A stretch of 64,000 nucleotides of DNA from a virus (lineage: Duplodnaviria; Caudoviricetes), in the IMG/VR virus record IMGVR_UViG_3300042445_001485; one strand, written 5' to 3'. Numbering within the stretch: the first letter of the stretch is position 1; every line of letters begins with the position of its first letter. A program made the translations under genes and the position numbers. The notes below the pieces were generated by a model. It saw only the letters and a list, made by a program, of their open reading frames with translations, ran no database searches and was not told the origin of the DNA. Shown one piece after another: positions 2,427 to 29,376 of this stretch.

Positions 2427-3394
2427 TTAGTGTACCATTTGTGTGCTGAGTCGATAATAGTTTCGATGTTGCTGTATTTGGGAACCCATCCTAATAGGTT
2501 CTTTGCCTGTGTGGCGTCTGCTACTAGTATATCTGGATCGCCAGGGCGTCTTGTTCCGTAATTGACAAATGGTAGTCCGTATTTGTTAAACACATAATCA
2601 ACAATTTGTTTATTACTTATACCCTCCCGAGTGCCAAGATTTAAAACATAAGCACCTGGTTGCGGATAGTCATCTAACAGGTAGTTGACACCCAATATGT
2701 GCGCTTGTGCCAAATCCCATACGTGTACATAGTCTCGAACACAAGTACCATCATCTGTGTCGTAATCGTCACCGTTGATGGTAAACGCACGATCAGCAAT
2801 GCTGGCTTCTAATGCACGAGCAACAATATGTGTAGCGCCCGGTTCTTGACCTAGATCCGAGTTAAAGGGCTCGGCACCTGCCGCATTGAAGTACCTAAAA
2901 CACATGCTATGAATATCGTATGCTCGGAAGTAATCATCCAGTATGCGTTCAGTCATGGCCTTGGTGGCACCATAGGGACTGATAGGTTGTATGTCACTGC
3001 CTTCATCGGTGGGCCAAGTGTCGGGCACACCATAAACACTGGCACTGCTACTAAACAAGATCACAGGCCGTTTGGACATGTGTCTAACAACATTCAACAA
3101 GGCAATGGTCTTAACTATGTTGTTGGTGTAGTATTCAGCGGGGTCAGTCATGCTGGGTCCAACCAAGCTGGTACCAGCACAATGCACAACAACATCAGGT
3201 TCTAAATTAACAATCAGTGACAATGCCTCGTCACTGGCAAAATCGGCAATCAGATATCCATCAATGTCTTTGAGAGTATGATCTCGTTTGATTTGATCAA
3301 TGATGTTTACAGTATCATTGTTTTGTTTAAATGCTCGCGCAACATGGCTACCTATGTAGCCACATCCACCTGTTACAACAACAGTTCTGTTCAT
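2423..3394 (-). CDS. galE: UDP-glucose 4-epimerase
   Basis: GGCGYIGSH, FSSSASVYG, PYGATK, RYFNAAGA, DGTCVRDYVHV, RRPGDP. Confidence 0.87.
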   Translation of the reverse strand: MNRTVVVTGGCGYIGSHVARAFKQNNDTVNIIDQIKRDHTLKDIDGYLIADFASDEALSLIVNLEPDVVVHCAGTSLVGPSMTDPAEYYTNNIVKTIALLNVVRHMSKRPVILFSSSASVYGVPDTWPTDEGSDIQPISPYGATKAMTERILDDYFRAYDIHSMCFRYFNAAGAEPFNSDLGQEPGATHIVARALEASIADRAFTINGDDYDTDDGTCVRDYVHVWDLAQAHILGVNYLLDDYPQPGAYVLNLGTREGISNKQIVDYVFNKYGLPFVNYGTRRPGDPDILVADATQAKNLLGWVPKYSNIETIIDSAHKWYTK

Positions 3395-17717: not shown

Positions 17718-18428
17718 CTAAGGGTGTTCTTTTAACTTGACTAGGCCAAGCGATTTAAAAATATTTATATACATCCAGCCTATATCAAATTCATACCAGT
17801 TCTTAGAGAGGCGGGCACTCGCTGGGTCCAGGTGGTGGTTGTTGTGCAACTCTTCACCGCCAATAACAATACCCCAAGGCACAATATTACGACTATGATC
17901 TTTAGTTTCGCCATTTCTATATCCTATCCAATGACCCACACCGTTTATGACTCCTGCCGCCCAGAACGGAATCCATATCATTTGGATGCCCCACATCACG
18001 ATGCCCCACCCGCCAAATATCAAGGTGTTTAACACAAGGAGAGTGCCAATGCCAAGTCTAGAGTGACGAGTGTATATGTTGTGCTCCATCCAATCAGCAG
18101 GAGTACCAGCACCGTATGTATTAACCATGTCCTTATCTTTGCTTGCTTCATGATATAATACTGCTCCTTTGAAGAATACTTGTCCAATTCCGTAAACATG
18201 GGGACTATGTGGGTCACCCTCTTGCTCAGTGAATCTATGATGCTTGCGGTGTACTGCCACCCATTGTTTTGTGACCATTCCGGTTGTTAGCCAAAGCCAG
18301 GCTCGCATAAAGTGACTGAGTATGGGATGAAATATCAATCCTCGATGTGCTTGTCCACGATGTAGGAAAACTGTGACACATATGATAGTGATATGTGTCA
18401 TCACTAGAACATATATTGTTTCAATCAT
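17718..18428 (-). CDS. Membrane fatty-acid desaturase (delta-9-like)
   Basis: Three His boxes HRGQAH, HRKHH, HNNHH plus TM helices. Confidence 0.9.
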   Translation of the reverse strand: MIETIYVLVMTHITIICVTVFLHRGQAHRGLIFHPILSHFMRAWLWLTTGMVTKQWVAVHRKHHRFTEQEGDPHSPHVYGIGQVFFKGAVLYHEASKDKDMVNTYGAGTPADWMEHNIYTRHSRLGIGTLLVLNTLIFGGWGIVMWGIQMIWIPFWAAGVINGVGHWIGYRNGETKDHSRNIVPWGIVIGGEELHNNHHLDPASARLSKNWYEFDIGWMYINIFKSLGLVKLKEHP

Positions 18429-18544: not shown

Positions 18545-18976
18545 TTATTTTAGACTTGCTCTCAACATCCAACCGTGCTTGCGGTGTGCATCCAGGCGCT
18601 CGGCCAAGAAGTTTGAAAATCCATGCTCACCGGCTTGTTCGGCTGCATCATATGCCATCTTTAGTACCAACAGCATTTTTTCATTGTCTTGCGACAATTC
18701 ATGCAACATGGCACCGGGACTGAGTATGTCGGTCTCGTCGCCGATTTGACTCAGTTGACTGAATCTGGTGTAGCTGGCTGGCACATAACTGCCAATGCCG
18801 CGAATCTTTTCCGCAAAGTCATCAATGGCACCGTATACTTCTTCGTAGATCATGCCAAACAATTGATGATGCTCTAGGAAGTCAGCACCTTCCACATTCC
18901 AGTGAAAGTTGTGCGCTTTCAAGTAGAAGGTGTATTCGCTGGCAAATGCTATTTTTGTAGTTTCTGATAGTGTCAT
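18545..18976 (-). CDS. dps: Dps/ferritin-like DNA protection protein
   Basis: KAHNFHWNVEG, HQLFGMIYEE, DDFAEKIR, HRKHGWMLRA. Confidence 0.9.
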   Translation of the reverse strand: MTLSETTKIAFASEYTFYLKAHNFHWNVEGADFLEHHQLFGMIYEEVYGAIDDFAEKIRGIGSYVPASYTRFSQLSQIGDETDILSPGAMLHELSQDNEKMLLVLKMAYDAAEQAGEHGFSNFLAERLDAHRKHGWMLRASLK

Positions 18977-21900
18977 AGATCGTATCCTGCCTTACGCATC
19001 ATATTTAAACGAGTTTCCATCACATCGTTTTCTTTTTCTGCGTGTCTGCGAGCATCATTATCACCTTGGCGAACAGTTGCTCGGTTGATTTTTTTAAAGT
19101 ATTCGTGACCTTTATCAAAGTTGCCTGCTCGATCTGCGGCACTAGCACGGATACCTAGTTCTTTTTTGTAACGACCCAACAACTCATTGCTGAGTTCGCT
19201 GAGTTCAACATCATCATGCACCACACGCATGTGATTGGGATTCTTTGGAAGATCGTTAGTTCTTACATATTTTGCAACTTTTTCATCTTCTTGTTTGCTC
19301 ATGTCTCGTATCTGACTCAATGTAAACTTGGGCTTTTTAACCGCAGGCTTGTCTGGTTCGTTTGACATAAAACCAAATACACCGGCTTCCTCTACTGATT
19401 CAGGATACCAAATGCGTCCCAGGCCAAATGCACGGTCAGCAGTCTGCTGTGCATGTCTGTTGCCTGTACGCAAATACCACTTGCCTGCACGAGTTTGTTT
19501 GAGTCCTAGTTGTTGTGCTAGTTCGGCGTCGTCAACCTTGTAGAAGATCATGCCAGTTTGTCTACGCTGGCGATCATCAAATTCAGGATTGCCTTCGTCA
19601 TCTTTTCTACGACTGCCACCTAGACTGGGTGCTGTAGGATCTGCGAAACCATGTTGGTAGCCACCCTCCGTCATGCCTTTTTTGTCTTTTTGTGCTTTTC
19701 TTTCAGCGGCTCTGCGGGCAGTTTCTTGCGGCGTCACTTTTGAACCGTCGGCGTAATACTTGGCACCGGCACCGTCTTTGGCTTTGTTGATAGCACTTTG
19801 TGCTTTTAAGCCTGCTATGGCGTTTTTGAACTGTCTGGTTGTTTCTATATCATCAGTATAGCCCTCCGCCACACCTTGCTCTTGCCAAGTGTTATTTTTG
19901 ATTCGTTGATTTTTGATTCTTTCGTAATTCATTAAAGAACCACGAATACGATGCTGGTCACCGGTATTTCCTGATAAGAGATGTTTCTTATAATAGTCAA
20001 TCTGACTTTGAACAAACTTGTTTGAGTAACTATCTTCTTCGGAGCCTTCCGCCATGCCTTGTTGCTTTTGCTGATACGCAAGTTCAGTATTGTTGGCCAT
20101 CTGTTGTTTAAAGTTGTCTACTGCACCGCCATCGCCAGAAATTGGGGCGCCTTCCGCCACACCTTGTTCTTTGGTTAAACGATTAACTGCTTTTTCAACA
20201 CCTTTGATGCGATTTTTAAATTCATGTTTCACGGATTTAACAATAGCTGGCGAATCTTTATATTTGCCCGGTCTTGCTTTTATGTCACCTAGCCCATATC
20301 CCAACGTACCAACATCTTTATTTGCTTTATTGATATATGATCCAAGAGTTTTTGGACTTAGTTCATTCAATGATCCTGGATCAAACCACTGGTGCTCACC
20401 AATGTTTACACCTTGTGAAGGATGGAACGGATCGGTGATCTGTCTTTCATCATCCTGTTTAGATTTGCTTTTTGATTTTTCTGTGTAATCGTAATCGCTT
20501 TTCATCTTATTAACCATGGCTCTCATTGGATCAGTTTTTTCCAACTCTTTCTGAGCCCGTAGTTTGTCCATATGGCGATCAAATGCTGCGGAATCAAAGT
20601 CGGAGCCTTCCTCCACACCTTGCTCTTTCTTTGCTTTTTCTATAGCGTCCCACTCGGCACCGGTCTTTTCGCCACGCTTTTTCTTTGCTGGTGGCTTTGA
20701 TGTGCGAACACCAGTGTGACTGTTTTGGTAATCACCGCTTGGTAGTTTAGTCCAGCCTTCCGCCATGCCTTGCTTATTTTCTGATGTGCTTTTAGTTTTT
20801 AACTCTTTTGTATCATGCGTTTTGGGATGATATATTTCTACTCCGATATTACCATCATGATCCTGTTTAAGACCAGCAAGTTCATATCCTGGATATTTTT
20901 TATCAACTATACCTTTAATTCTCATGTAATCACTGTCAGAAATGTCAGCAACATCGGAGTTATCGTCCTCCGCCACACCTTGTTCTTTACTATTGTCTTT
21001 GATAGTGCCACCAAATTTAGCAGCATAGTCTTTGGCCTTTGCCACTGAATCAAAACTCTTTGTCACTTTGCCGTTCTTAACAACAGAATATCTTTGACCT
21101 TCTGAGCCTTCCGCCACACCTTGCTCTTTAACTGGCTCTGCTGGCGAAGCCAGCGTCATCTTGTTCATGCCTATTCCAGACTGTCGCCATACCTTGTACA
21201 TCTTACCATCAGCACCCTTTAGCACCATAGCATTGCCGGGAATACGACTGGAATCATATTGCACAATCATAGCATTTTGTCCACCAACTTGCACATGAGG
21301 TTTTTGGCGATCATAGTGTTGAGCACCGACTGCCATAGCACCTGCTATTACCGGAACGCCAAGCAAGGTTGCAGTATCTTTCCAGCCTTCCTCCACACCT
21401 TGCTTGTTAATCAAATCAATATTACCAAACTGTCGAAGATGTTTTATCGTGTTACCGAGATGATGGTGATAATCTGGATCGTCTTTATTGACACCATTTT
21501 GTGCTAATAATTTTTCAGCATGACGATGTAGTGGCATTTCTTTCTTCAATAGTTCCGGTGCGCCTTCCGCCACACCTTGCTCGCCATGTCTAATGCTGCC
21601 ATCCTTCATCAACTTCAAGTTGAGATTGTATTGTTTATTGTCGTGATTGACTTTATTCATACGACCTTCTTTGAAGCCTTTAGCAAAGTATTGTTTATAC
21701 ATGCCACCATGCTGACTATGCCAGTGGTTAATGGTCATTGCTCGTTCTAGTGTTGCGCCATCAGCGAGGCTTACACCTTTAGTGAAACCATCTTCTTGTG
21801 CCATCTTGGCAATTTCTGGACTGAATCCTTCATCGTCATCACCACCGTTAAATCCGTCTGGTGCAAATTCGTTCAAGCCTTCCGCCACACCTTCATCTGT

Positions 21901-22710
21901 TCCTTTTCTTGAGTCTGGCATATTCATTTGACGATATTCATCAGGCCAATCAAATACAATTTCTTCGTAGCATCTAAAAACCTTCATTAGTTCTGCTGCC
22001 TTGGGATCGTGCTTGGCTGCATCTTCTAGTTCTTCTGCCGCTGGTCTTCCAAAAGGATCTACAAAGTCTTTTGGTCCCCATGGATTGGAGGGATCGACAT
22101 TGTCGCCAAACCATACCAAGGCATCATTTACATTTGTAAATTTATTTCTTCTAGCCCATTGAGCAAAATACTCATGGTAGGGTTTGTTGTTTCTACCTGC
22201 CCACTGTATCAATTCAGAGACGCTTGTGGGCGGCATATCCTGATCAGGATACTTTGGTTCAGCAGTCATTTGGCTCATCATTGAGTCAAACTTTTGATCG
22301 CCTGTGGCTTCATCCAGTTGATCATCTGAGAACTCCATATGGTCATATGGCCCCCATTTTTGTCCTGTGCGACTGTCTATGGTGTCATCGTGATCACCAT
22401 GTTCATAGTAGTCATCACTAAAGATTTCCACACCGTTAAAGTCACTATTGTAATCAATATGCAGTTTACGGGTAACACCATCAGGACAAACAATACCACG
22501 ATTCAACAAGCGTTCTACATCTTGTTGGCTTTTAATGCCTTTTTCGAGACTGCCAGTGTCAAAGGTGCCATTGTACCAGGCACTGGCCAAGGCTTGGAAA
22601 TAATTACCTGAGTCACCACCGCCGTCAGCGGCAAATTCAGCCAGGCGGCTTTCCATGGCTAGTTGTTGTTTTTTCTTTTTGCTAGGTTGAGATAGGTCGT
22701 ATAAGTTCAT
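18973..22710 (-). CDS. Modular polyprotein-like, probably capsid-internal protein (1245 aa)
   Basis: 11 G[VM][AET]E[GD] linkers plus LAE/LDE/LNE/VEE/LSE motifs between unrelated short modules. Start MNLYDL at 22710 follows the upstream stop. Confidence 0.75.
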   Translation of the reverse strand: MNLYDLSQPSKKKKQQLAMESRLAEFAADGGGDSGNYFQALASAWYNGTFDTGSLEKGIKSQQDVERLLNRGIVCPDGVTRKLHIDYNSDFNGVEIFSDDYYEHGDHDDTIDSRTGQKWGPYDHMEFSDDQLDEATGDQKFDSMMSQMTAEPKYPDQDMPPTSVSELIQWAGRNNKPYHEYFAQWARRNKFTNVNDALVWFGDNVDPSNPWGPKDFVDPFGRPAAEELEDAAKHDPKAAELMKVFRCYEEIVFDWPDEYRQMNMPDSRKGTDEGVAEGLNEFAPDGFNGGDDDEGFSPEIAKMAQEDGFTKGVSLADGATLERAMTINHWHSQHGGMYKQYFAKGFKEGRMNKVNHDNKQYNLNLKLMKDGSIRHGEQGVAEGAPELLKKEMPLHRHAEKLLAQNGVNKDDPDYHHHLGNTIKHLRQFGNIDLINKQGVEEGWKDTATLLGVPVIAGAMAVGAQHYDRQKPHVQVGGQNAMIVQYDSSRIPGNAMVLKGADGKMYKVWRQSGIGMNKMTLASPAEPVKEQGVAEGSEGQRYSVVKNGKVTKSFDSVAKAKDYAAKFGGTIKDNSKEQGVAEDDNSDVADISDSDYMRIKGIVDKKYPGYELAGLKQDHDGNIGVEIYHPKTHDTKELKTKSTSENKQGMAEGWTKLPSGDYQNSHTGVRTSKPPAKKKRGEKTGAEWDAIEKAKKEQGVEEGSDFDSAAFDRHMDKLRAQKELEKTDPMRAMVNKMKSDYDYTEKSKSKSKQDDERQITDPFHPSQGVNIGEHQWFDPGSLNELSPKTLGSYINKANKDVGTLGYGLGDIKARPGKYKDSPAIVKSVKHEFKNRIKGVEKAVNRLTKEQGVAEGAPISGDGGAVDNFKQQMANNTELAYQQKQQGMAEGSEEDSYSNKFVQSQIDYYKKHLLSGNTGDQHRIRGSLMNYERIKNQRIKNNTWQEQGVAEGYTDDIETTRQFKNAIAGLKAQSAINKAKDGAGAKYYADGSKVTPQETARRAAERKAQKDKKGMTEGGYQHGFADPTAPSLGGSRRKDDEGNPEFDDRQRRQTGMIFYKVDDAELAQQLGLKQTRAGKWYLRTGNRHAQQTADRAFGLGRIWYPESVEEAGVFGFMSNEPDKPAVKKPKFTLSQIRDMSKQEDEKVAKYVRTNDLPKNPNHMRVVHDDVELSELSNELLGRYKKELGIRASAADRAGNFDKGHEYFKKINRATVRQGDNDARRHAEKENDVMETRLNMMRKAGYDL
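19664..21893 (-). repeat. 11 dispersed in-frame 17-bp direct repeats, consensus CAAGGTGTGGCGGAAGG
   Basis: Plus-strand starts at 19664, 19862, 20045, 20150, 20606, 20756, 20966, 21107, 21386, 21563, 21878. All spacings are multiples of 3. Confidence 0.92.
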
Positions 22711-22711
22711 A

Positions 22712-23338
22712 TTATTTCTGTCCTGGAACTGGTGCGCCAACAGCACCTGCGGGCACGGCAGTCTGTTGTGCTTGTTGTTGTTTCTTTTGCTCGGCATTGG
22801 CCTGTTTGATTAATTCTTGGAATTTGCCTTGTAGCTGTGGGTTGCTCATGATGGGTGCTAATACCGGCGCTAGATCATTGTTTTTGTCATTCATGGTCTG
22901 CATGTCAACATCAGCACCAGCTGATTTTAATTTAGAGATACCTTGTTGCAATGCGGCATCTTGTTTTGTTTTTTGTTGTTGTGCAAGTTTGGCCTGTGCG
23001 GCTAAAATTGCTGGATCTTGATTTGGTTGATTGAGATTGGGATTTTGCTGTTGACCTGCTGGCGCGGGCATCGGAGGAACAGGAGCCTCGTTAACAAAAT
23101 CTCTATACTCACGCATCAAGTCTCTGGCGGGTGTTTCGTGTAGTGCGGCTTCTAAATCACGCAGAATGCTTTCACCACCAACCAGGCGGTTTTGAAATGG
23201 ATGTTGACCTTTTTTACCCACAGCCCGATCTGTACCACGAACTTGATCACCGGGCCGTTGTTTGGGCTCGCCAGCAAACTTGACCTTGGAACCTTCTTCC
23301 AGTGCCGACAGCTGTCTTAGTAGGTCACGCATACTCAT
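22712..23338 (-). CDS. Probable capsid-internal protein, Gln/Pro-rich
   Basis: MRDLLRQLSALEEG and DFVNEA candidate protease sites. Late operon. Confidence 0.6.
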   Translation of the reverse strand: MSMRDLLRQLSALEEGSKVKFAGEPKQRPGDQVRGTDRAVGKKGQHPFQNRLVGGESILRDLEAALHETPARDLMREYRDFVNEAPVPPMPAPAGQQQNPNLNQPNQDPAILAAQAKLAQQQKTKQDAALQQGISKLKSAGADVDMQTMNDKNNDLAPVLAPIMSNPQLQGKFQELIKQANAEQKKQQQAQQTAVPAGAVGAPVPGQK

Positions 23339-23826
23339 TAATAAACGCCTTTACCAATCTTTGGCTGTTTTGTTTTCATTGCATTACCATATTTTTTAAC
23401 AGCGGCTGATTCTTGTTTGATACGGCGTTGCACAGGAGTTGTGGATCCTATTGCACCGATGGCCATACCACCTGCGGTACTGGCACCAACACTGGCAGAC
23501 TCTGCTACAACTTCTTCGAATCGACGATCAGCAGATTCATAAGCAAACGCAGGCATTGCGCCCGATTCTTGTTCTTTATGCTCGTAACTCAAATACTCAT
23601 AAACAGTACGCAAGTAATCATTGGCCAGGGTGATCTTTTCACTAACCCATCCTTCCAGTTGTCCTGTCTCTTTTATACCTTGCAAAATTTTGTGCAGTTT
23701 GATGGCATAGTCTGCGGCATTGTAGCAGTCAGCACGGGCCATTTGTACTTCATGGTCGCCATGCATTTCATTGGCATCTTGTGCTATAAATGGGTTGTGT
23801 TCTACAATAAAATCTGTTGGTTTCAT
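23338..23826 (-). CDS. Probable capsid-internal protein
   Basis: N-terminal MKPTDFIVE resembles the T4 capsid-targeting sequence. TAAATA at 23853-23848. Confidence 0.6.
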   Translation of the reverse strand: MKPTDFIVEHNPFIAQDANEMHGDHEVQMARADCYNAADYAIKLHKILQGIKETGQLEGWVSEKITLANDYLRTVYEYLSYEHKEQESGAMPAFAYESADRRFEEVVAESASVGASTAGGMAIGAIGSTTPVQRRIKQESAAVKKYGNAMKTKQPKIGKGVY

Positions 23827-24140: not shown

Positions 24141-24746
24141 TTATCCTAGGTATTTGTCTAGTATTTGATGTGCGGCCCGGGGATTCTTTGGATATAGATC
24201 GTTGACAATTTGAGATTTTTGTTCCGGACTTGCTTTGGGCCACATTGTACGAATTTGCGTAGCACTAGTAACGCCACTGGGACCTGCAGGGAATTCCACT
24301 GTGGGCAAGTAGGCCATATAACCATGCTGACTCATTGGAGCAGGTGTTTTGCTGTAAGGTTGGAGGTATGCTGGATTACCATCCTTCTTAACACCACCGG
24401 CGTATGGTGGTTCATCCTGGTCTTTAACACTACGGGCAAATACTAATACAGTTGTAGCCGGATCGTAATTGGCGGTAATTTCTTTGGCCTGGAATGGACT
24501 TTTAACTTGTACAAATCGTCCTGCAGGAACACCGGCAATTTGTGCTAGCCGTGCCTTATCTGCAATATCAAATGGTCTGTTGGCTTTGTCATTGGTGGCC
24601 GCATAGTAAATATCAGCACCAGGGAACATCTTCTGTGCAGAAGTGTACAGGCTTAGATGCCCGGGATGAAAGGGATGGAACCCACCGGGTAATATAACCA
24701 CAGTCTTTTCGGCTGGTTTTGCTTCAAACAGTTCAAAAATTAACAT
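24141..24746 (-). CDS. HxGH nucleotidyltransferase (cytidyltransferase/NMNAT-like)
   Basis: PGGFHPFHPGH and SATQIR. Start MLIFELFE lies 7 nt after TAAATA. Confidence 0.78.
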   Translation of the reverse strand: MLIFELFEAKPAEKTVVILPGGFHPFHPGHLSLYTSAQKMFPGADIYYAATNDKANRPFDIADKARLAQIAGVPAGRFVQVKSPFQAKEITANYDPATTVLVFARSVKDQDEPPYAGGVKKDGNPAYLQPYSKTPAPMSQHGYMAYLPTVEFPAGPSGVTSATQIRTMWPKASPEQKSQIVNDLYPKNPRAAHQILDKYLG

Positions 24747-26396: not shown

Positions 26397-27107
26397 TTAG
26401 GCAATGACCACTGGATGAATATTTAATACGCAACCCGGATGTATCAGTTCCAAAAAGGTAGTTATCCGCGTATCGTTGGCATAAAACCAAATACTCCAAA
26501 AACCATTATATTTTGAATCTAACATTCGTTTAACACCCGGAGAAACTTTAACTTCGTCTGTGCCCATACTCTCTAAATAGTTAAGAATTTGTTGTTTAGT
26601 AGCAACATCACAGCGACCGTCGCGCAGTACAACTTTATATTGATACCCAAATTCTTTCTTGCGTATAATTACACCGTTTTTAAGCAATTCTTGTGTGGCA
26701 TCATCAGCAGGACCCGACACAGATAATAATATAGTTGAGTACTTTGTTTCAATTTGGTCAACCATGTCTTTTAACTCGGTTTCAGTTTCTGTATAAAACT
26801 GTACTTCGGGTTCTTCAATACGCATCTTAATGTGCGGATTGGCATCTTTTAATTCACGAATAATGTGTAGTAATTCTACATCTATAATATCGTTTAAAGA
26901 AGCACCCTTGCCCCAATAACCTCCGGGATTGAATTGCCGGAAATGCCGTCTTGATTCAACAGCTTCAGCATAGTCTCTGTTTTCGTATATAATACGCCCG
27001 CCAGGCACAGACAATTTTATTCGATATAGATATTTTCCAAAAAACTGTTTGGTAGTTTCTTCGAATTGAATCGAATAGTTTTTATTTTTCCAGTACAATA
27101 TATCCAT
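26397..27107 (-). CDS. Hypothetical protein
   Basis: About 236-aa ORF overlapping the end of clpA. Confidence 0.65.
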   Translation of the reverse strand: MDILYWKNKNYSIQFEETTKQFFGKYLYRIKLSVPGGRIIYENRDYAEAVESRRHFRQFNPGGYWGKGASLNDIIDVELLHIIRELKDANPHIKMRIEEPEVQFYTETETELKDMVDQIETKYSTILLSVSGPADDATQELLKNGVIIRKKEFGYQYKVVLRDGRCDVATKQQILNYLESMGTDEVKVSPGVKRMLDSKYNGFWSIWFYANDTRITTFLELIHPGCVLNIHPVVIA

Positions 27108-29376
27108 GCTCATCCACAATAGGGGGTGCTTCGATTACCAGTCTGCTGTCAAAGGTAAATTCTGTTTTGTTCCAGTCTACTGTAATGCTACTGTTGGCAG
27201 GCACACGCTCAAACAAGATCTTTTTACTCAGTGGCACTTTGATCAAATCGTTGATTTTCCTTGCAATAGGTCTAGCACCCATTTTATCATCATATCCAAT
27301 TTCACTCAGATAGTTGATTGCATTTTCTGTAAGTCGTATACGGATATGTTTGTCTTCAAGTAGTTCATTGACTTCGTTAATAAACTTTGCCACCACTTTC
27401 TTAATGCTTAACTTATCTAGTTTATTAAATTTACAGATAGCATCTAGACGATTGCGGAACTCAGGTTTGAAGAAATCTTTAACAGCCTTGTCGTCTTCGT
27501 CTGTTTTATCAACACTACCAAAACCAATTGATTTGCGTTCGTTGTCAGCGGCACCCAAATTACTAGTCAGTATAACAATGCTGTTACGGGCGTCTGCTTT
27601 TTTACCGTTACTACTGGTTACATTACCCTCGTCCATTAATTGTAATAATATATTACTGACATCTGGGTGTGCTTTTTCAATTTCGTCAAACAAAATAACA
27701 GCATTGGGACTCTTTTCTAAATCACTAATTAGCAGTCCGCCACCCAAGTTACTGTCCTCGTAGCCTACATACCCCGGGGGTGCACCGATCAGTTTACTGG
27801 CCGAATGCCGTTCTTGGTACTCACTCATGTCGTATCTTAATAGTTTCATCCCAAGGTTCTCAGCTAACAGTTTAGCAAATTCAGTTTTACCTGTGCCTGT
27901 TGGTCCCAGAAATAAGAAGCTACCAATTGGTTTATTAATGGCTTTTAATCCTGCACGACTGACATAGATTCTTTCTAACACAGAATCTACTACATTATCT
28001 TGTCCGTATAGTTTGGTTTTTACATTGCCTTCTAAGTTATCTAGACTCTTAACTGTCTCTGCACCAATTTGATCTGCTGGTATTTTTGTAAACTTACTAA
28101 TGGTGTTAATAATATCAGCTCTAGTAATAGTCCAATCGTTTTTAATTAATTTAATAGATGCACAGGCAGTATCTATTAAGTCGATTGCTTTATCAGGCAG
28201 TTTTTTATCTGTTTGATATCTAACACTTAGATCAACAGCACTATCTATTGCAGAAGCGTCAATGGTACCACCATGAAACTCTTCAAAGTATTCTTTTAGT
28301 CCACGCAAAATATCTTTGGCAACCGCAGGGGTCGGTTCTTCAACTGTTAATCGATAGAAACGACGCATCAATGCACGATCCTTTTCAAAGCTCTGTGTAT
28401 ATTCAGCCCAAGTTGTGCTGGCAATAACTTTTAATTGTCCTTTGCCCAATGCAGGTTTGATCATGTTGCTAAAATCTACTGAACTTTGTGATCCAGATCC
28501 TGCGCCTTGCATTTGATGAGCTTCGTCAATGAACAAAATACATCGACCTTCTTCAATTAAGGCATCAATGACTTCTCGTACTTTTTCTTCAAACTCGCCG
28601 CGGTACTTACTACCCGCTAGAATAGTTCCTATATCTAGATTATATACTGAATAGTCTTTGAGATAGTTGGGCACTTCACCGTTAACAATGTTTCTTGCCA
28701 GTCCCTCGGCTATTGCAGTTTTACCAACACCAGCATCACCCACCAATAATACATTGCTTTTATTTCGTTTGGCCAATACTTGAGCTATTTCATCTAATTC
28801 AAATTCACGGCCAATGACAGGATCAATTTTGCCCAACTTTGCCAACTCAGTTAAGTTTGTACAATACTCGGCTAATACTCCATTTGATTTAATTTTCCTA
28901 GCCGCTTTCTTCCCATGTGTTTCTTTATAATTTTCGTTATAGAACTCTACTAATGCGTTTCGATCTAAGCCATACTTGATCATAAAATATGCGGCATGGC
29001 TATTTGTTTCAGTGGTCATACTTAAAAATATGTCTACTACTTGTATATGTGTACGACCGCTAAACAATACTTGAGTGAGTGCATGATTAAACATACGCTC
29101 TAGAGCATGTGTTTTTTTAGGCTCACATCCATGTTCTCTACTTATTAGATATTTTTGTGTTTCTAGATAGTTGCCAATATCATCCAGCATTGCATCTATA
29201 TCACAGCCAAATGCCACTAGTAAATCATAAAATGGTTTAAAAGATACCATGCCTTTGAGCAGGTGTTCTAAAGTGACATACTCGTGATTATGTTCTTTGG
29301 CAGAACTAATTGCAGAATTAACAATTACTTCAATTTCGGGATTGGGTTGTATGGTCATCTTGTCGTTGTGAATCAT
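27082..29376 (-). CDS. clpA: ATP-dependent Clp protease ATPase subunit
   Basis: N-domain HEYVTLEHLL, GDAGVGKT/IDEAH, GPTGTGKT/FDEIEK, IGF loop, no ClpB middle domain. Confidence 0.9.
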   Translation of the reverse strand: MIHNDKMTIQPNPEIEVIVNSAISSAKEHNHEYVTLEHLLKGMVSFKPFYDLLVAFGCDIDAMLDDIGNYLETQKYLISREHGCEPKKTHALERMFNHALTQVLFSGRTHIQVVDIFLSMTTETNSHAAYFMIKYGLDRNALVEFYNENYKETHGKKAARKIKSNGVLAEYCTNLTELAKLGKIDPVIGREFELDEIAQVLAKRNKSNVLLVGDAGVGKTAIAEGLARNIVNGEVPNYLKDYSVYNLDIGTILAGSKYRGEFEEKVREVIDALIEEGRCILFIDEAHQMQGAGSGSQSSVDFSNMIKPALGKGQLKVIASTTWAEYTQSFEKDRALMRRFYRLTVEEPTPAVAKDILRGLKEYFEEFHGGTIDASAIDSAVDLSVRYQTDKKLPDKAIDLIDTACASIKLIKNDWTITRADIINTISKFTKIPADQIGAETVKSLDNLEGNVKTKLYGQDNVVDSVLERIYVSRAGLKAINKPIGSFLFLGPTGTGKTEFAKLLAENLGMKLLRYDMSEYQERHSASKLIGAPPGYVGYEDSNLGGGLLISDLEKSPNAVILFDEIEKAHPDVSNILLQLMDEGNVTSSNGKKADARNSIVILTSNLGAADNERKSIGFGSVDKTDEDDKAVKDFFKPEFRNRLDAICKFNKLDKLSIKKVVAKFINEVNELLEDKHIRIRLTENAINYLSEIGYDDKMGARPIARKINDLIKVPLSKKILFERVPANSSITVDWNKTEFTFDSRLVIEAPPIVDEHGYIVLEK

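Follow-up and report, generated by a model that had tools for sequence, protein, structure and literature searches.

In the gp38 adhesins of T2/T6-type phages, short conserved motifs (GRMs) within one CDS separate hypervariable segments, and crossovers in the motifs give rise to chimeric genes (Tetart 1998, as cited in PMC3157838). PeSLs are repeated short DNA elements, and recombination between their copies inserts, deletes or replaces orphan genes in T4-type phages (PMC2839356, PMC4122927). The internal proteins of T4 are diverse and have only a capsid-targeting sequence (CTS) in common (PMC3012670), and the cut made by T4-type prohead proteases falls on the C-terminal side of Glu (PMC5694885). 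In polyvalent proteins, peptidase domains embedded in the protein typically carry out the processing, and a nucleotide-conserved repeated linker is not described for them (PMC5512222).

We analyzed a 64-kb stretch of phage DNA (hereafter, the window), in which one gene carries a repeated linker. As in gp38, a short nucleotide-conserved motif flanks variable segments, and crossovers map inside the motif in natural variants and relatives. However, GRMs form the structural core of one folded domain in fixed order, whereas the linker joins unrelated, independently exchangeable modules of variable number and order, is probably a protease site, and has no sequence relationship to GRMs. Repeat-mediated cassette turnover is shared with PeSLs, which also lie in hyperplastic regions between core genes. 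In contrast to PeSLs, which are intergenic and regulatory and carry a promoter and terminator, the repeat described here is coding, lies in frame within a CDS, and joins modules into one protein; it has no stops around it, no stem-loop, and no sigma70-like promoter with terminator of the kind that defines a PeSL. Likeness to the gp21-processed internal proteins of T4 (IPI-III, Alt) lies in diverse, fast-evolving cargo and in what may be a short N-terminal targeting/cleavage peptide ending in hydrophobic-x-Glu (PMC3012670, PMC5694885), and by this analogy the modules may be cargo as well. T4 internal proteins are, however, separate genes with one site each, whereas here one ORF contains up to 11 or more sites that join many modules, and conservation of the site extends to its DNA. 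Further, the protein can be compared with polyvalent proteins, which are likewise large, multidomain and variable in architecture, include GNAT, nucleotidyltransferase and HD types, and are thought to be delivered with DNA (Iyer et al. 2017, PMC5512222). Unlike in these proteins, we expect the protease here to act in trans, and the modules are mainly orphans.

The original prediction also likened the repeat to an integron or a CRISPR-type array. Integrons combine the IntI tyrosine recombinase with attC sites that contain imperfect inverted repeats, and CRISPR arrays consist of non-coding direct repeats of 24-48 nt, spacers of similar length, and cas genes. Variable units that are gained and lost between repeats are indeed present at our locus, but the analogy is a loose one, since the repeats are coding, have no inverted repeat, and are accompanied by no recombinase in the 10 neighboring genes. 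Unlike an integron, the locus has no attC-like inverted repeat, no integrase among these 10 genes and no promoter-capture logic; unlike CRISPR repeats, those found here are 17-21 nt long, translated in frame and 105-456 nt apart. The system is motif-mediated modular shuffling as in T4-type phages (gp38 GRMs, PeSLs), in a new form. We consider it probable that the source is a T4-related jumbo phage from lake water, that the gene codes for a polyprotein built of small cargo modules, most of them orphans, and that the linker is both a gp21-type protease site and a DNA recombination joint.

The gene and its linkers

The CDS contains approximately 12 or more unrelated modules with linkers between them, including 11 copies of a (K/E)QG(V/M)(A/E/T)E-G linker. 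Its start is most likely the ATG at position 22710, directly after the stop of the upstream gene, which corrects the ORF call (P0001). The features are as follows (arrows mark putative cleavage positions).

18973-22710, minus strand: polyprotein CDS, 1245 aa, equal to P0001 residues 30-1274 (ORF list and translation)
22636-22710, minus strand: N-terminal leader MNLYDLSQ...SRLAE↓F, identical in the L210 and L211 orthologues, with homology ending at GCTGAATTTGC; possibly a capsid-targeting propeptide ending in an L-A-E site
22306-22317, minus strand: non-canonical junction QLDE↓A, where L210 homology ends; it also bounds, on the C-terminal side, a module of ~115 aa that is widely shared
21878-21894, minus strand: linker 1, DEGVAE↓G, GAAGGTGTGGCGGAAGG; 5' edge of the module-2 cassette common with L211
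21580-21877, minus strand: module 2 cassette (GLNEFAPDGF...), in another position and order in L211 and further contigs
21563-21579, minus strand: linker 2, EQGVAE↓G, exact 17-mer; 3' edge of the module-2 cassette common with L211
21386-21402, minus strand: linker 3, KQGVEE↓G, GAG variant; one partner of the 780-bp deletion joint
21107-21123, minus strand: linker 4, EQGVAE↓G, exact 17-mer; contigs from three runs diverge at 21104-21109
20966-20982, minus strand: linker 5, EQGVAE↓D (17-mer scan and codon read-out)
20756-20772, minus strand: linker 6, KQGMAE↓G, GGC-ATG haplotype, which recurs in other contigs
20606-20622, minus strand: linker 7, EQGVEE↓G, GAG variant; second partner of the 780-bp deletion joint
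20604-21383, minus strand: 780-bp segment, modules 4-7, present in the window and missing from a population variant
20150-20166, minus strand: linker 8, EQGVAE↓G, exact 17-mer; one contig diverges at 20150
20045-20061, minus strand: linker 9, QQGMAE↓G, GGC-ATG haplotype; L210 and L211 homology ends exactly here
19862-19878, minus strand: linker 10, EQGVAE↓G; one contig diverges at 19880
19663-19680, minus strand: linker 11, degenerate, KKGMTE↓G (AAA GGC ATG ACG GAG GGT); C-terminal-module homology with L210 and L211 begins here
18973-19662, minus strand: C-terminal module 12, conserved in the L210 and L211 orthologues

P0001 had no Pfam or PHROG match, and 201 database proteins matched it as a mosaic, each covering 5-22% of its length. 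P0002 (984 aa, 100% identical) was considered as a deletion variant and rejected, because it is a shorter call of P0001 that aligns to residues 291-1274. Comparison of the CDS with INPHARED phages using megablast gave no match, and the only tblastn match covered 69 aa of the C-terminus, in Synechococcus phage BUCT-ZZ01. With the CDS as the query, no isolated phage with the linker system was found. A literature search for QGVAEG matched solely an unrelated fungal proteomics paper. The GC content was 36-45%. The T4 late promoter TATAAATA occurred twice in the window compared with 3.5 expected copies, and because the motif was not enriched, it did not support late expression.

Conservation of the linker as DNA

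The 17-mer CAAGGTGTGGCGGAAGG was detected, with up to three mismatches, in 10 copies in the 64-kb window, compared with 0.11 expected by chance. All 10 copies were on the minus strand within the single ORF, and the 11th copy was degenerate. Linkers were spaced 105-456 nt apart, and the repeat of 17-21 nt was in frame and translated. No inverted repeat or stem-loop was seen when the 17-mer was read directly.

The original prediction stated that Val in the repeat is always encoded by GTG (8 of 8) and Ala by GCG (8 of 8), and our recount gave the same numbers. As it had also described, the variable codon (GCG, GAG or ACG) ended in G in all 11 copies, GGC encoded the final Gly in 9 of 10 copies (one copy has Asp, GAC, instead), and two haplotypes, GGT-GTG (eight copies) and GGC-ATG (three copies), were interleaved. 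Codon preference, which would have accounted for this pattern, did not do so: in the 34 ORFs of the window, GTG made up 22% of Val, GCG 7.2% of Ala, ACG 3.4% of Thr and GGC 27% of Gly codons, and with such low shares these are not the preferred codons.

The same nucleotides recurred in other phages. Scans of IMG/VR revealed the 17-mer in frame in at least ~180 environmental phage contigs, and the GGC-ATG haplotype was also present in other contigs. The first locus set was collected by the exact 17-mer and was therefore biased. When the scan was defined by amino acids only, GGT GTG GCG was found in 47 of ~66 low-GC linker matches of new loci, among the matches listed. In the remaining linker copies of the same ORFs, GTG encoded 48 of 65 Val and GCG 47 of 53 Ala residues, with backgrounds of 21% and 8%, respectively. 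A control peptide of the same proteins, LNEFAP, had 10 nucleotide versions in 10 copies, indicating that synonymous sites there are free. Further, the DNA polymerases of five related large contigs were only 72-77% identical to that of the window, and synonymous sites are therefore saturated across the clade. In homologous cassette pairs, synonymous differences amounted to 13% in linkers and 23% in modules, an approximately two-fold reduction in a test that is partly biased by locus ascertainment. The linker is conserved at the nucleotide level, and this conservation is specific to the linker. We infer that recombination accounts for this conservation.

Three other explanations bear on these counts. 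First, the uniformity might reflect mere recent common descent of the linkers, or chimeric metagenome assembly across the repeat, and have no functional meaning. All comparisons were based on metagenome assemblies, the relatives all being assembled contigs, and the bias of the first locus set also speaks for this reading. However, the amino-acid-defined scan yielded the same codons, and at 72-77% polymerase identity neutral synonymous sites should be randomized, as they are in LNEFAP of the same ORFs. Further, the assembly k-mer (31 in Logan) is longer than the repeat (17-21 nt), and therefore real reads must span each junction. We thus regard descent or chimeric assembly as very improbable.

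Second, GTG and ATG of the linker might be internal start codons from which the modules are translated separately. The hydrophobic position is GTG or ATG, both start codons, in 11 of 11 copies, and the preceding codons are often the purine-rich AAG or GAG. However, no stop codon precedes any linker, and the products would therefore be nested rather than separate. In relatives, GTA, ATA or GTC occupies this position in approximately one-quarter of the variant copies, and only 1 nt separates AAGG from GTG, too little for a Shine-Dalgarno site. There is hardly any chance, in our estimate, that the linkers serve as starts.

Third, the nucleotides might be kept for a direct function of the RNA or DNA at module boundaries, as a two-tetrad G-quadruplex, a rare-codon ribosome pause for folding, or a protein-binding site; the coincidence of breakpoints with boundaries would then result from selection for whole modules with intact cleavage sites. 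The sequence GG-TGT-GG-C-GG-AA-GG holds four GG tracts, and GGC ATG GCG and GGT GTG GAG retain them, which would account for G as the third base in the codons for Val and Ala/Glu/Thr. All 12 matches to GG(N1-4)x3GG in the CDS sit on linkers, and GCG is a rare codon. However, the predicted G-quadruplex is marginal (-1.4 kcal/mol), and approximately one-quarter of the variant linkers of relatives (GTA, ATA, GCA) drop a GG tract. A direct function also leaves unexplained the conserved CAA, the final G of the preceding codon and the linkage of GGT with GTG and of GGC with ATG.

Breakpoints and a natural deletion at the linker

Exchange at the linker, the explanation that we prefer, was examined in the ends of DNA homology. 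Among 165 internal ends, 97 (59%) fell in the linker compared with 11 (7%) for random positions. Homology starts were concentrated at the CAA codon and homology ends at GG(C), and printed alignments showed that homology switched on and off at the 17-mer. The other 41% of ends lay outside canonical linkers; LDE↓ and AE↓FA were other junctions, and one edge fell within a module. At linker 1, contigs from two runs continued into unrelated sequence, and record 14 of run X14 was 89% identical to module 2 with unrelated flanks. Module clusters, built with a reciprocal 75% coverage criterion, had differing neighbors and tandem duplications, and a 99.4%-identical cassette was present in two ORFs of a single contig.

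Collinear modules in relatives would have spoken against shuffling, and the modules were not collinear. In L210 and L211, which are close and syntenic, cassettes differed and were reordered between the same leader and C-terminal module; at the position of linker 11 they carry CAAGGTGTGGCGGAAGGC and CTAGGTGTGGCGGAAGGT, respectively. Four of the five large contigs (L205-L208), which are more distant, possess positional orthologues upstream of the DNA polymerase. The modules of these polyproteins were wholly different, with no BLAST match to the polyprotein of the window, and the linker motif was the same.

A deletion joined at the repeat was found in a lake metagenome (run X17). In a contig of this run, positions 20603 and 21384 are connected through 21 letters common to both sides, resulting in an in-frame 780-bp deletion, and the joint corresponds to two identical 21-nt linkers (linkers 3 and 7). 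Record 19 of this run contained 203-205 nt without mismatches on either side of the joint, and the read depth was 0.4-1.0 over most of the skipped segment (bins 20716-21103) compared with ~4-6 in the flanks. At least 18 runs, and 19 studies, contained the stretch. The joint was observed in one run; most joints had sides of only 20-24 nt, and these were taken as linkers of other phages and left uncounted. The deletion junction (39-mer) was not found in IMG/VR or JGI metagenome contigs, and the junction of the window itself was not found in IMG/VR; these contig collections appear not to contain this phage.

Breakpoints thus lie at the linker, and one natural deletion variant is among them. The proposal that the repeat acts as a crossover site is supported by the position of the breakpoints, the deletion joint and the reordered relatives, although some breakpoints lie at other Glu-ending junctions. 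The precision of breakpoints to within a few nucleotides and the deletion joint within 21 identical nucleotides are left unexplained by a direct function of RNA or DNA, which we consider unlikely.

Alternatively, exchange might be active rather than based on passive short homology, with the 17-mer as the recognition site of a dedicated enzyme encoded elsewhere, such as a homing-type endonuclease or a recombinase. At least 18-20 nt are conserved across phages whose polymerases are 72-77% identical, T4-type phages are rich in homing endonucleases (an HNH-like ORF adjoins the MCP gene in L199), and some ORFs stop two to three codons past a linker, as if it served for docking. However, the 10 genes that surround the polyprotein gave no match to a nuclease or recombinase family, and the syntenic loci showed no companion gene conserved among them. 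An inverted repeat is absent from the linker, and other short junctions also serve as breakpoints. A dedicated enzyme therefore seems quite improbable to us.

Proposed processing, exchange and cargo

Passive exchange at a processed linker remains our preferred reading, and by analogy the linker is probably also a protease cutting site of the T4 gp21 type (V-x-E↓G). Homologues of gp21 (Peptidase_S77) and gp23 were found in three of the five related large contigs, and genes for a gp21-type protease or a gp23-type capsid protein were absent from the 64-kb window. Modules in relatives included GNAT, HD_4, Polbeta NTase, NT5C and CTP_transf_like, and neither P0001 nor any of the 18 scanned relatives showed a peptidase domain. 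In the relatives, the MCP N-terminus contains ALLE↓G twice and the scaffold contains ~13 hydrophobic-x-E sites; the linkers (V/M-x-E↓G) match the hydrophobic-x-Glu form of these capsid and scaffold sites. The CTS of T4 is MKTYQEFIAE. The relatives possess CTS-like leaders (MRAQEFITE↓G, MRATEFIIEGVAE↓G and MKTLREYINLIE...QGVAE↓G), among which MRAQEFITE↓G, for example, resembles the T4 sequence, and the leader of the window, MNLYDLSQ...RLAE↓F, has only a loose likeness to a CTS. In addition, seven internal twin-arginine signal matches were detected, all of them just downstream of hydrophobic-x-Glu and four of the seven no more than 10 residues from a canonical linker. From these data we infer cleavage, packaging into the capsid and a recombination pathway, the first two by analogy with T4.

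In the mechanism that we propose, a gp21-type prohead protease would cut after Glu at the hydrophobic-x-E of (K/E)QG(V/M)AE↓G, and the modules would therefore be released. As DNA, G CAA GGT GTG GCG GAA GGC would provide a block of 17-21 nt of identity in all cassettes of the clade, at which in-frame homologous or microhomology recombination could occur within a genome and between co-infecting phages. Owing to this shared block, whole modules could be deleted, duplicated, inserted or reordered with the frame and the cleavage site intact. A cassette would need canonical ends to go on being exchanged, and junctions would be re-made from canonical sequence, which would keep the synonymous positions uniform; molecular drive or lineage selection could bring this about, perhaps with a contribution from gene conversion. 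Points against the mechanism are that a block of 17-21 nt is short for homologous recombination to work efficiently and that selection for exchangeability is a second-order force. Further, no nuclease or recombinase family was found among the 10 genes neighboring the polyprotein.

If the mechanism is correct, the linker is a clear natural case of one short sequence constrained both as a peptide, for processing, and as DNA, as a joint, and one gene becomes an array of exchangeable protein modules. This would give jumbo phages a concrete route to diversify orphan cargo, which probably comprises host-takeover or anti-defense factors. Synonymous recoding of the linker should then stop cassette exchange and leave processing unaffected. 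Further, the 17-mer is a simple handle with which to mine hundreds of arrays and thousands of naturally delimited modules from metagenomes. The twin-arginine (Tat) signals inside the polyproteins point to a possible routing of modules, once released, to the periplasm of the host.

A more far-reaching interpretation, which we put forward tentatively and hold to be doubtful, is that freshwater jumbo phages possess an "in-frame cassette array" system that had gone unrecognized, with the linker as its evolved dual-code element. One word would serve as protease site and joint, maybe with dedicated machinery or recombinogenic G-tracts, and a common pool of injected effector modules, including enzymes and proteins re-exported by the host Tat system, would be reassorted continuously between phages.

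Linker codons in the window and across the clade

The linkers lie in a single polyprotein gene, the product of which matched no Pfam or PHROG family.

18973-22797, minus strand: polyprotein ORF (from the ORF list)
19663-19680, minus strand: degenerate eleventh linker copy (from codon-level reading)

Translation likely begins at the ATG at 22710, right behind the stop of the upstream gene, giving a CDS of 18973-22710 (1245 aa). The 17-mer CAAGGTGTGGCGGAAGG occurred ten times with three or fewer mismatches in the 64-kb window (0.11 copies expected by chance), and all ten copies were on the coding strand within this ORF. Read in frame, the linker copies encode (K/E)QG(V/M)(A/E/T)E(G/D). The codon counts of the original prediction were all reproduced: GTG for 8/8 Val, GCG for 8/8 Ala and GGC for 9/10 of the final Gly, with the haplotypes GGT-GTG (n = 8) and GGC-ATG (n = 3) interleaved. 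Because the variable codon was GAG, GAG or ACG in the three non-Ala copies, its third base was G in 11/11. Across 34 window ORFs, GTG accounted for only 22% of Val, GCG for 7.2% of Ala, ACG for 3.4% of Thr and GGC for 27% of Gly. Since GTG, GCG and ACG are scarce, the uniformity is not due to codon preference, and GTG and GCG were excluded as the normal preferred codons.

The window is DNA of a jumbo phage related to T4, with genes for a DNA polymerase of family B, a clamp loader and a ClpB/Lon-like ATPase. This DNA is present in at least 18 lake-water metagenome runs. Among named phages, the closest polymerases are those of Sinorhizobium phage Phosso, Agrobacterium phage Atu_ph07 and GAP32-type jumbo phages (41-52% identity); five IMG/VR contigs of 199-343 kb carry polymerases 72-77% identical to that of the window, and three of them have genes for both a T4 gp23-type capsid protein and a gp21-type prohead protease, neither of which was found in the 64-kb window. 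The relatives in all comparisons are metagenome assemblies. In a related contig of about 300 kb (L199), an HNH-type homing-endonuclease-like ORF (2633-3379, plus strand) lies directly behind the major capsid gene.

The exact 17-mer was found in at least 120 IMG/VR contigs, nearly always in frame as QGVAEG inside a long ORF and often in multiple copies per ORF. This first locus set was ascertained by the 17-mer itself, and the copies selected by the search were removed before codons were counted. The remaining linkers of the same ORFs used GTG for 48/65 Val and GCG for 47/53 Ala (backgrounds 21% and 8%), and the codon before the linker mostly ended in G. A second scan specified only the amino acids E-Q-G-V-A-E-G and left third bases free; among the matches listed, GGT GTG GCG was used in 47 of about 66 low-GC linker matches at new loci. 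Isolated matches in high-GC contigs looked like chance. The control peptide LNEFAP of the same proteins, a probable Glu-ending junction too, had 10 nucleotide versions in 10 copies, with codon usage at background. Thus, peptide constraint alone is insufficient to fix the synonymous positions, as originally proposed.

Further, with polymerases 23-28% divergent, neutral synonymous sites must be saturated. Recent ancestry or an assembly artefact as the cause of linker uniformity is highly improbable, and we give even less credence to the GTG/ATG codons being internal starts; both are opposed by the codons recovered in the amino-acid scan, the 72-77% polymerase identity, the random codons of LNEFAP and the existence of variant linkers. 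When homologous cassettes were paired, codons differed synonymously about half as often in linkers (28/209) as in modules (497/2177; p = 0.001), in a test partly biased by the way the loci were found. This shows that nucleotide constraint on the linker is moderate on short time scales.

The linker nucleotides might instead serve a direct RNA- or DNA-level function, which is unlikely but deserves some weight. The linker reads GG-TGT-GG-C-GG-AA-GG, a sequence that could form a two-tetrad G-quadruplex on the coding strand, and all 12 GG(N1-4)x3GG motifs of the CDS fall on linkers (19663-21894, minus strand). However, the predicted quadruplex is marginal (-1.4 kcal/mol), and a GG tract is broken in about one quarter of variant linkers.

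Module exchange at the linker

Two contigs of close relatives, L210 and L211, are fully syntenic with the window, and their flanking genes share 77-93% DNA identity with it. Their orthologous polyproteins are 889 aa and 844 aa long, respectively, versus 1245 aa for that of the window. The leader and the C-terminal module are common to all three, the interior cassettes differ, and window module 2 is placed behind a module-9-like cassette in L211, in reversed order. Homology edges fell at the linkers 21878-21894, 21563-21579, 20045-20061 and 19663-19680, two more at other Glu-ending junctions, CTGGATGAA (L-D-E) and GCTGAATTTGC (A-E↓F-A; arrows mark the proposed cut), and one within a module. The window's arrangement, with a linker-bearing polyprotein upstream of the DNA polymerase, recurs in four of the five large contigs (L205-L208); these four polyproteins have the same linker motif, and none of them matched the window polyprotein by BLAST at E < 1e-5. 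Collinear identical modules were thus not found in these relatives.

Directly downstream of the polyprotein are two genes that are kept in L210 and L211; as auxiliary genes they are unusual in a phage. A third gene is also conserved in both.

18545-18976, minus strand: ferritin/Dps-like gene (Pfam Ferritin, 8.5e-18)
17718-18428, minus strand: fatty-acid desaturase-like gene
27082-29376, minus strand: double AAA+ ATPase, ClpB/Lon-like (764 aa, phrog_4871)

In one lake metagenome run, X17, a contig joined 20603 straight to 21384, matching without a mismatch over 203-205 letters per side. The two GVEEG linkers have 21 letters in common, and the joint falls inside these; because this repeat is shorter than the 31-mers of the assembler, the joint must be spanned by real reads. 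The skipped 780 bp had a depth of 0.4-1.0 over most of their length (bins 20716-21103), versus about 4-6 in the flanks. Several runs contained contigs that match one module and are then unrelated, stopping at the linkers 19880, 20063, 20150, 20603, 21104-21109 and 21894. The predicted loss and reordering of in-frame modules at the linker is supported by L210, L211 and the X17 joint.

We cut 125 linker-bearing ORFs into modules at each linker and grouped the modules into clusters at 75% reciprocal coverage. Modules of one cluster had differing neighbours (L004 [.. 13 14] and L009 [.. 17 13 15 14]; L105 [47 0 10 48] and L106 [.. 1 10 20.]), and tandem duplications occurred, for example in L101. 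Homologous DNA stretches between contigs (85-99% identity) run from the CAA codon of a linker to the GG(C) of the following one, and identity gives way to unrelated sequence at the 17-mer. Internal homology ends lay inside the linker window in 97/165 cases, versus 11/165 for random positions, so breakpoints are not unrelated to the repeat. In variant linkers the mismatches are on the outer side, which places the crossover inside the linker. Two linker-bearing ORFs of one contig (L061, 2192-4078 and 4421-5389) have in common a linker-bounded 167-bp cassette (99.4% identity), which points to recent intragenomic copying. That a dedicated sequence-specific enzyme acts at the linker is quite unlikely; the 10 genes neighbouring the polyprotein matched no nuclease or recombinase family.

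Putative processing and module content

The T4 gp21 site is L/I-x-E. The linker fits a T4-type prohead protease site, such proteases cleaving C-terminal to Glu (PMC5694885). The capsid protein of the relatives has ALLE↓G twice at its start, and their scaffold protein has about 13 hydrophobic-x-E sites. T4 capsid-targeting-like leaders are present on polyproteins and neighbours in relatives (MRAQEFITE↓G, MRATEFIIEGVAE↓G, MKTLREYINLIE..QGVAE↓G) and on two neighbouring genes of the window, identified by N-terminal sequence.

23338-23826, minus strand: gene with leader MKPTDFIVE↓
24141-24746, minus strand: gene with leader MLIFELFE↓, weakly cytidylyltransferase-like

A cytidylyltransferase-like domain is the first polyprotein module in two relatives (P0047, P0073). 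By analogy, we infer that the polyprotein may be cleaved and packaged.

Each of the seven internal twin-arginine matches found follows a hydrophobic-x-Glu site closely, as in QGVAE↓DLSRRGFLKGAG; four of them were within 10 residues of a canonical linker, and the rest followed sites such as GLTE↓ or SLEE↓. Pfam confirmed two internal Tat signals, in the proteins P0031 and P0085. Loci with such signals are L208 (5928-7586, minus strand), L098, L127 and L189. To our knowledge, a Tat signal is functional only at a free N-terminus, and the signals behind hydrophobic-x-Glu sites are the strongest indirect support for cleavage. They also suggest that released modules may be exported via the host Tat pathway. 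Five polyprotein ORFs end 2-3 codons past a linker (L055, L103, L119, L035 and L073; tails GKK, GLK, GC, DN and ST), and such a terminal linker suits a docking or remnant site more than a processing need, because almost nothing is left to release.

Modules of the relatives include GNAT, HD_4, cytidylyltransferase-like, Pol-beta nucleotidyltransferase and NT5C domains, several DUFs and many orphans, a repertoire resembling that of polyvalent proteins (PMC5512222) as well as the T4 internal proteins, which are likewise diverse (PMC3012670). One piece, found by BLAST, is the most widely shared, at variable positions.

22306-22647, minus strand (residues 55-164 of the window polyprotein, P0001): module of about 115 aa, FAxxGGG...MEF..LDE, flanked by LNE↓F and LDE↓ sites

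A core-binding or targeting role is conceivable for it. Among the BLAST alignments with the 120 best homologues, 101 were hits to window module 1.

A probable dual-use linker and known systems

We favour, as the probable explanation, a linker with two uses: a protease site as peptide and a homology joint of 17-21 nt as DNA. With such a joint, cassettes could be deleted, duplicated, inserted or reordered in frame, and uniformity would be maintained because only canonical-ended cassettes keep circulating.

The array is neither an integron nor a CRISPR array, to which it had been likened, and we found no description of such a system in the literature. T4-type phages have the closest known mechanisms, which work alike: crossovers within the short conserved glycine-rich motifs of gp38, an adhesin (Tetart 1998, as cited in PMC3157838), modular shuffling mediated by PeSL regulatory cassettes in hyperplastic regions (PMC2839356), and the diverse internal-protein genes, whose only common part is the capsid-targeting sequence (PMC3012670). 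In contrast to these, the repeat described here is a translated inter-module linker, probably a cleavage site, with up to 11 copies per ORF; it is common as DNA to many phages, and the number and order of modules vary.
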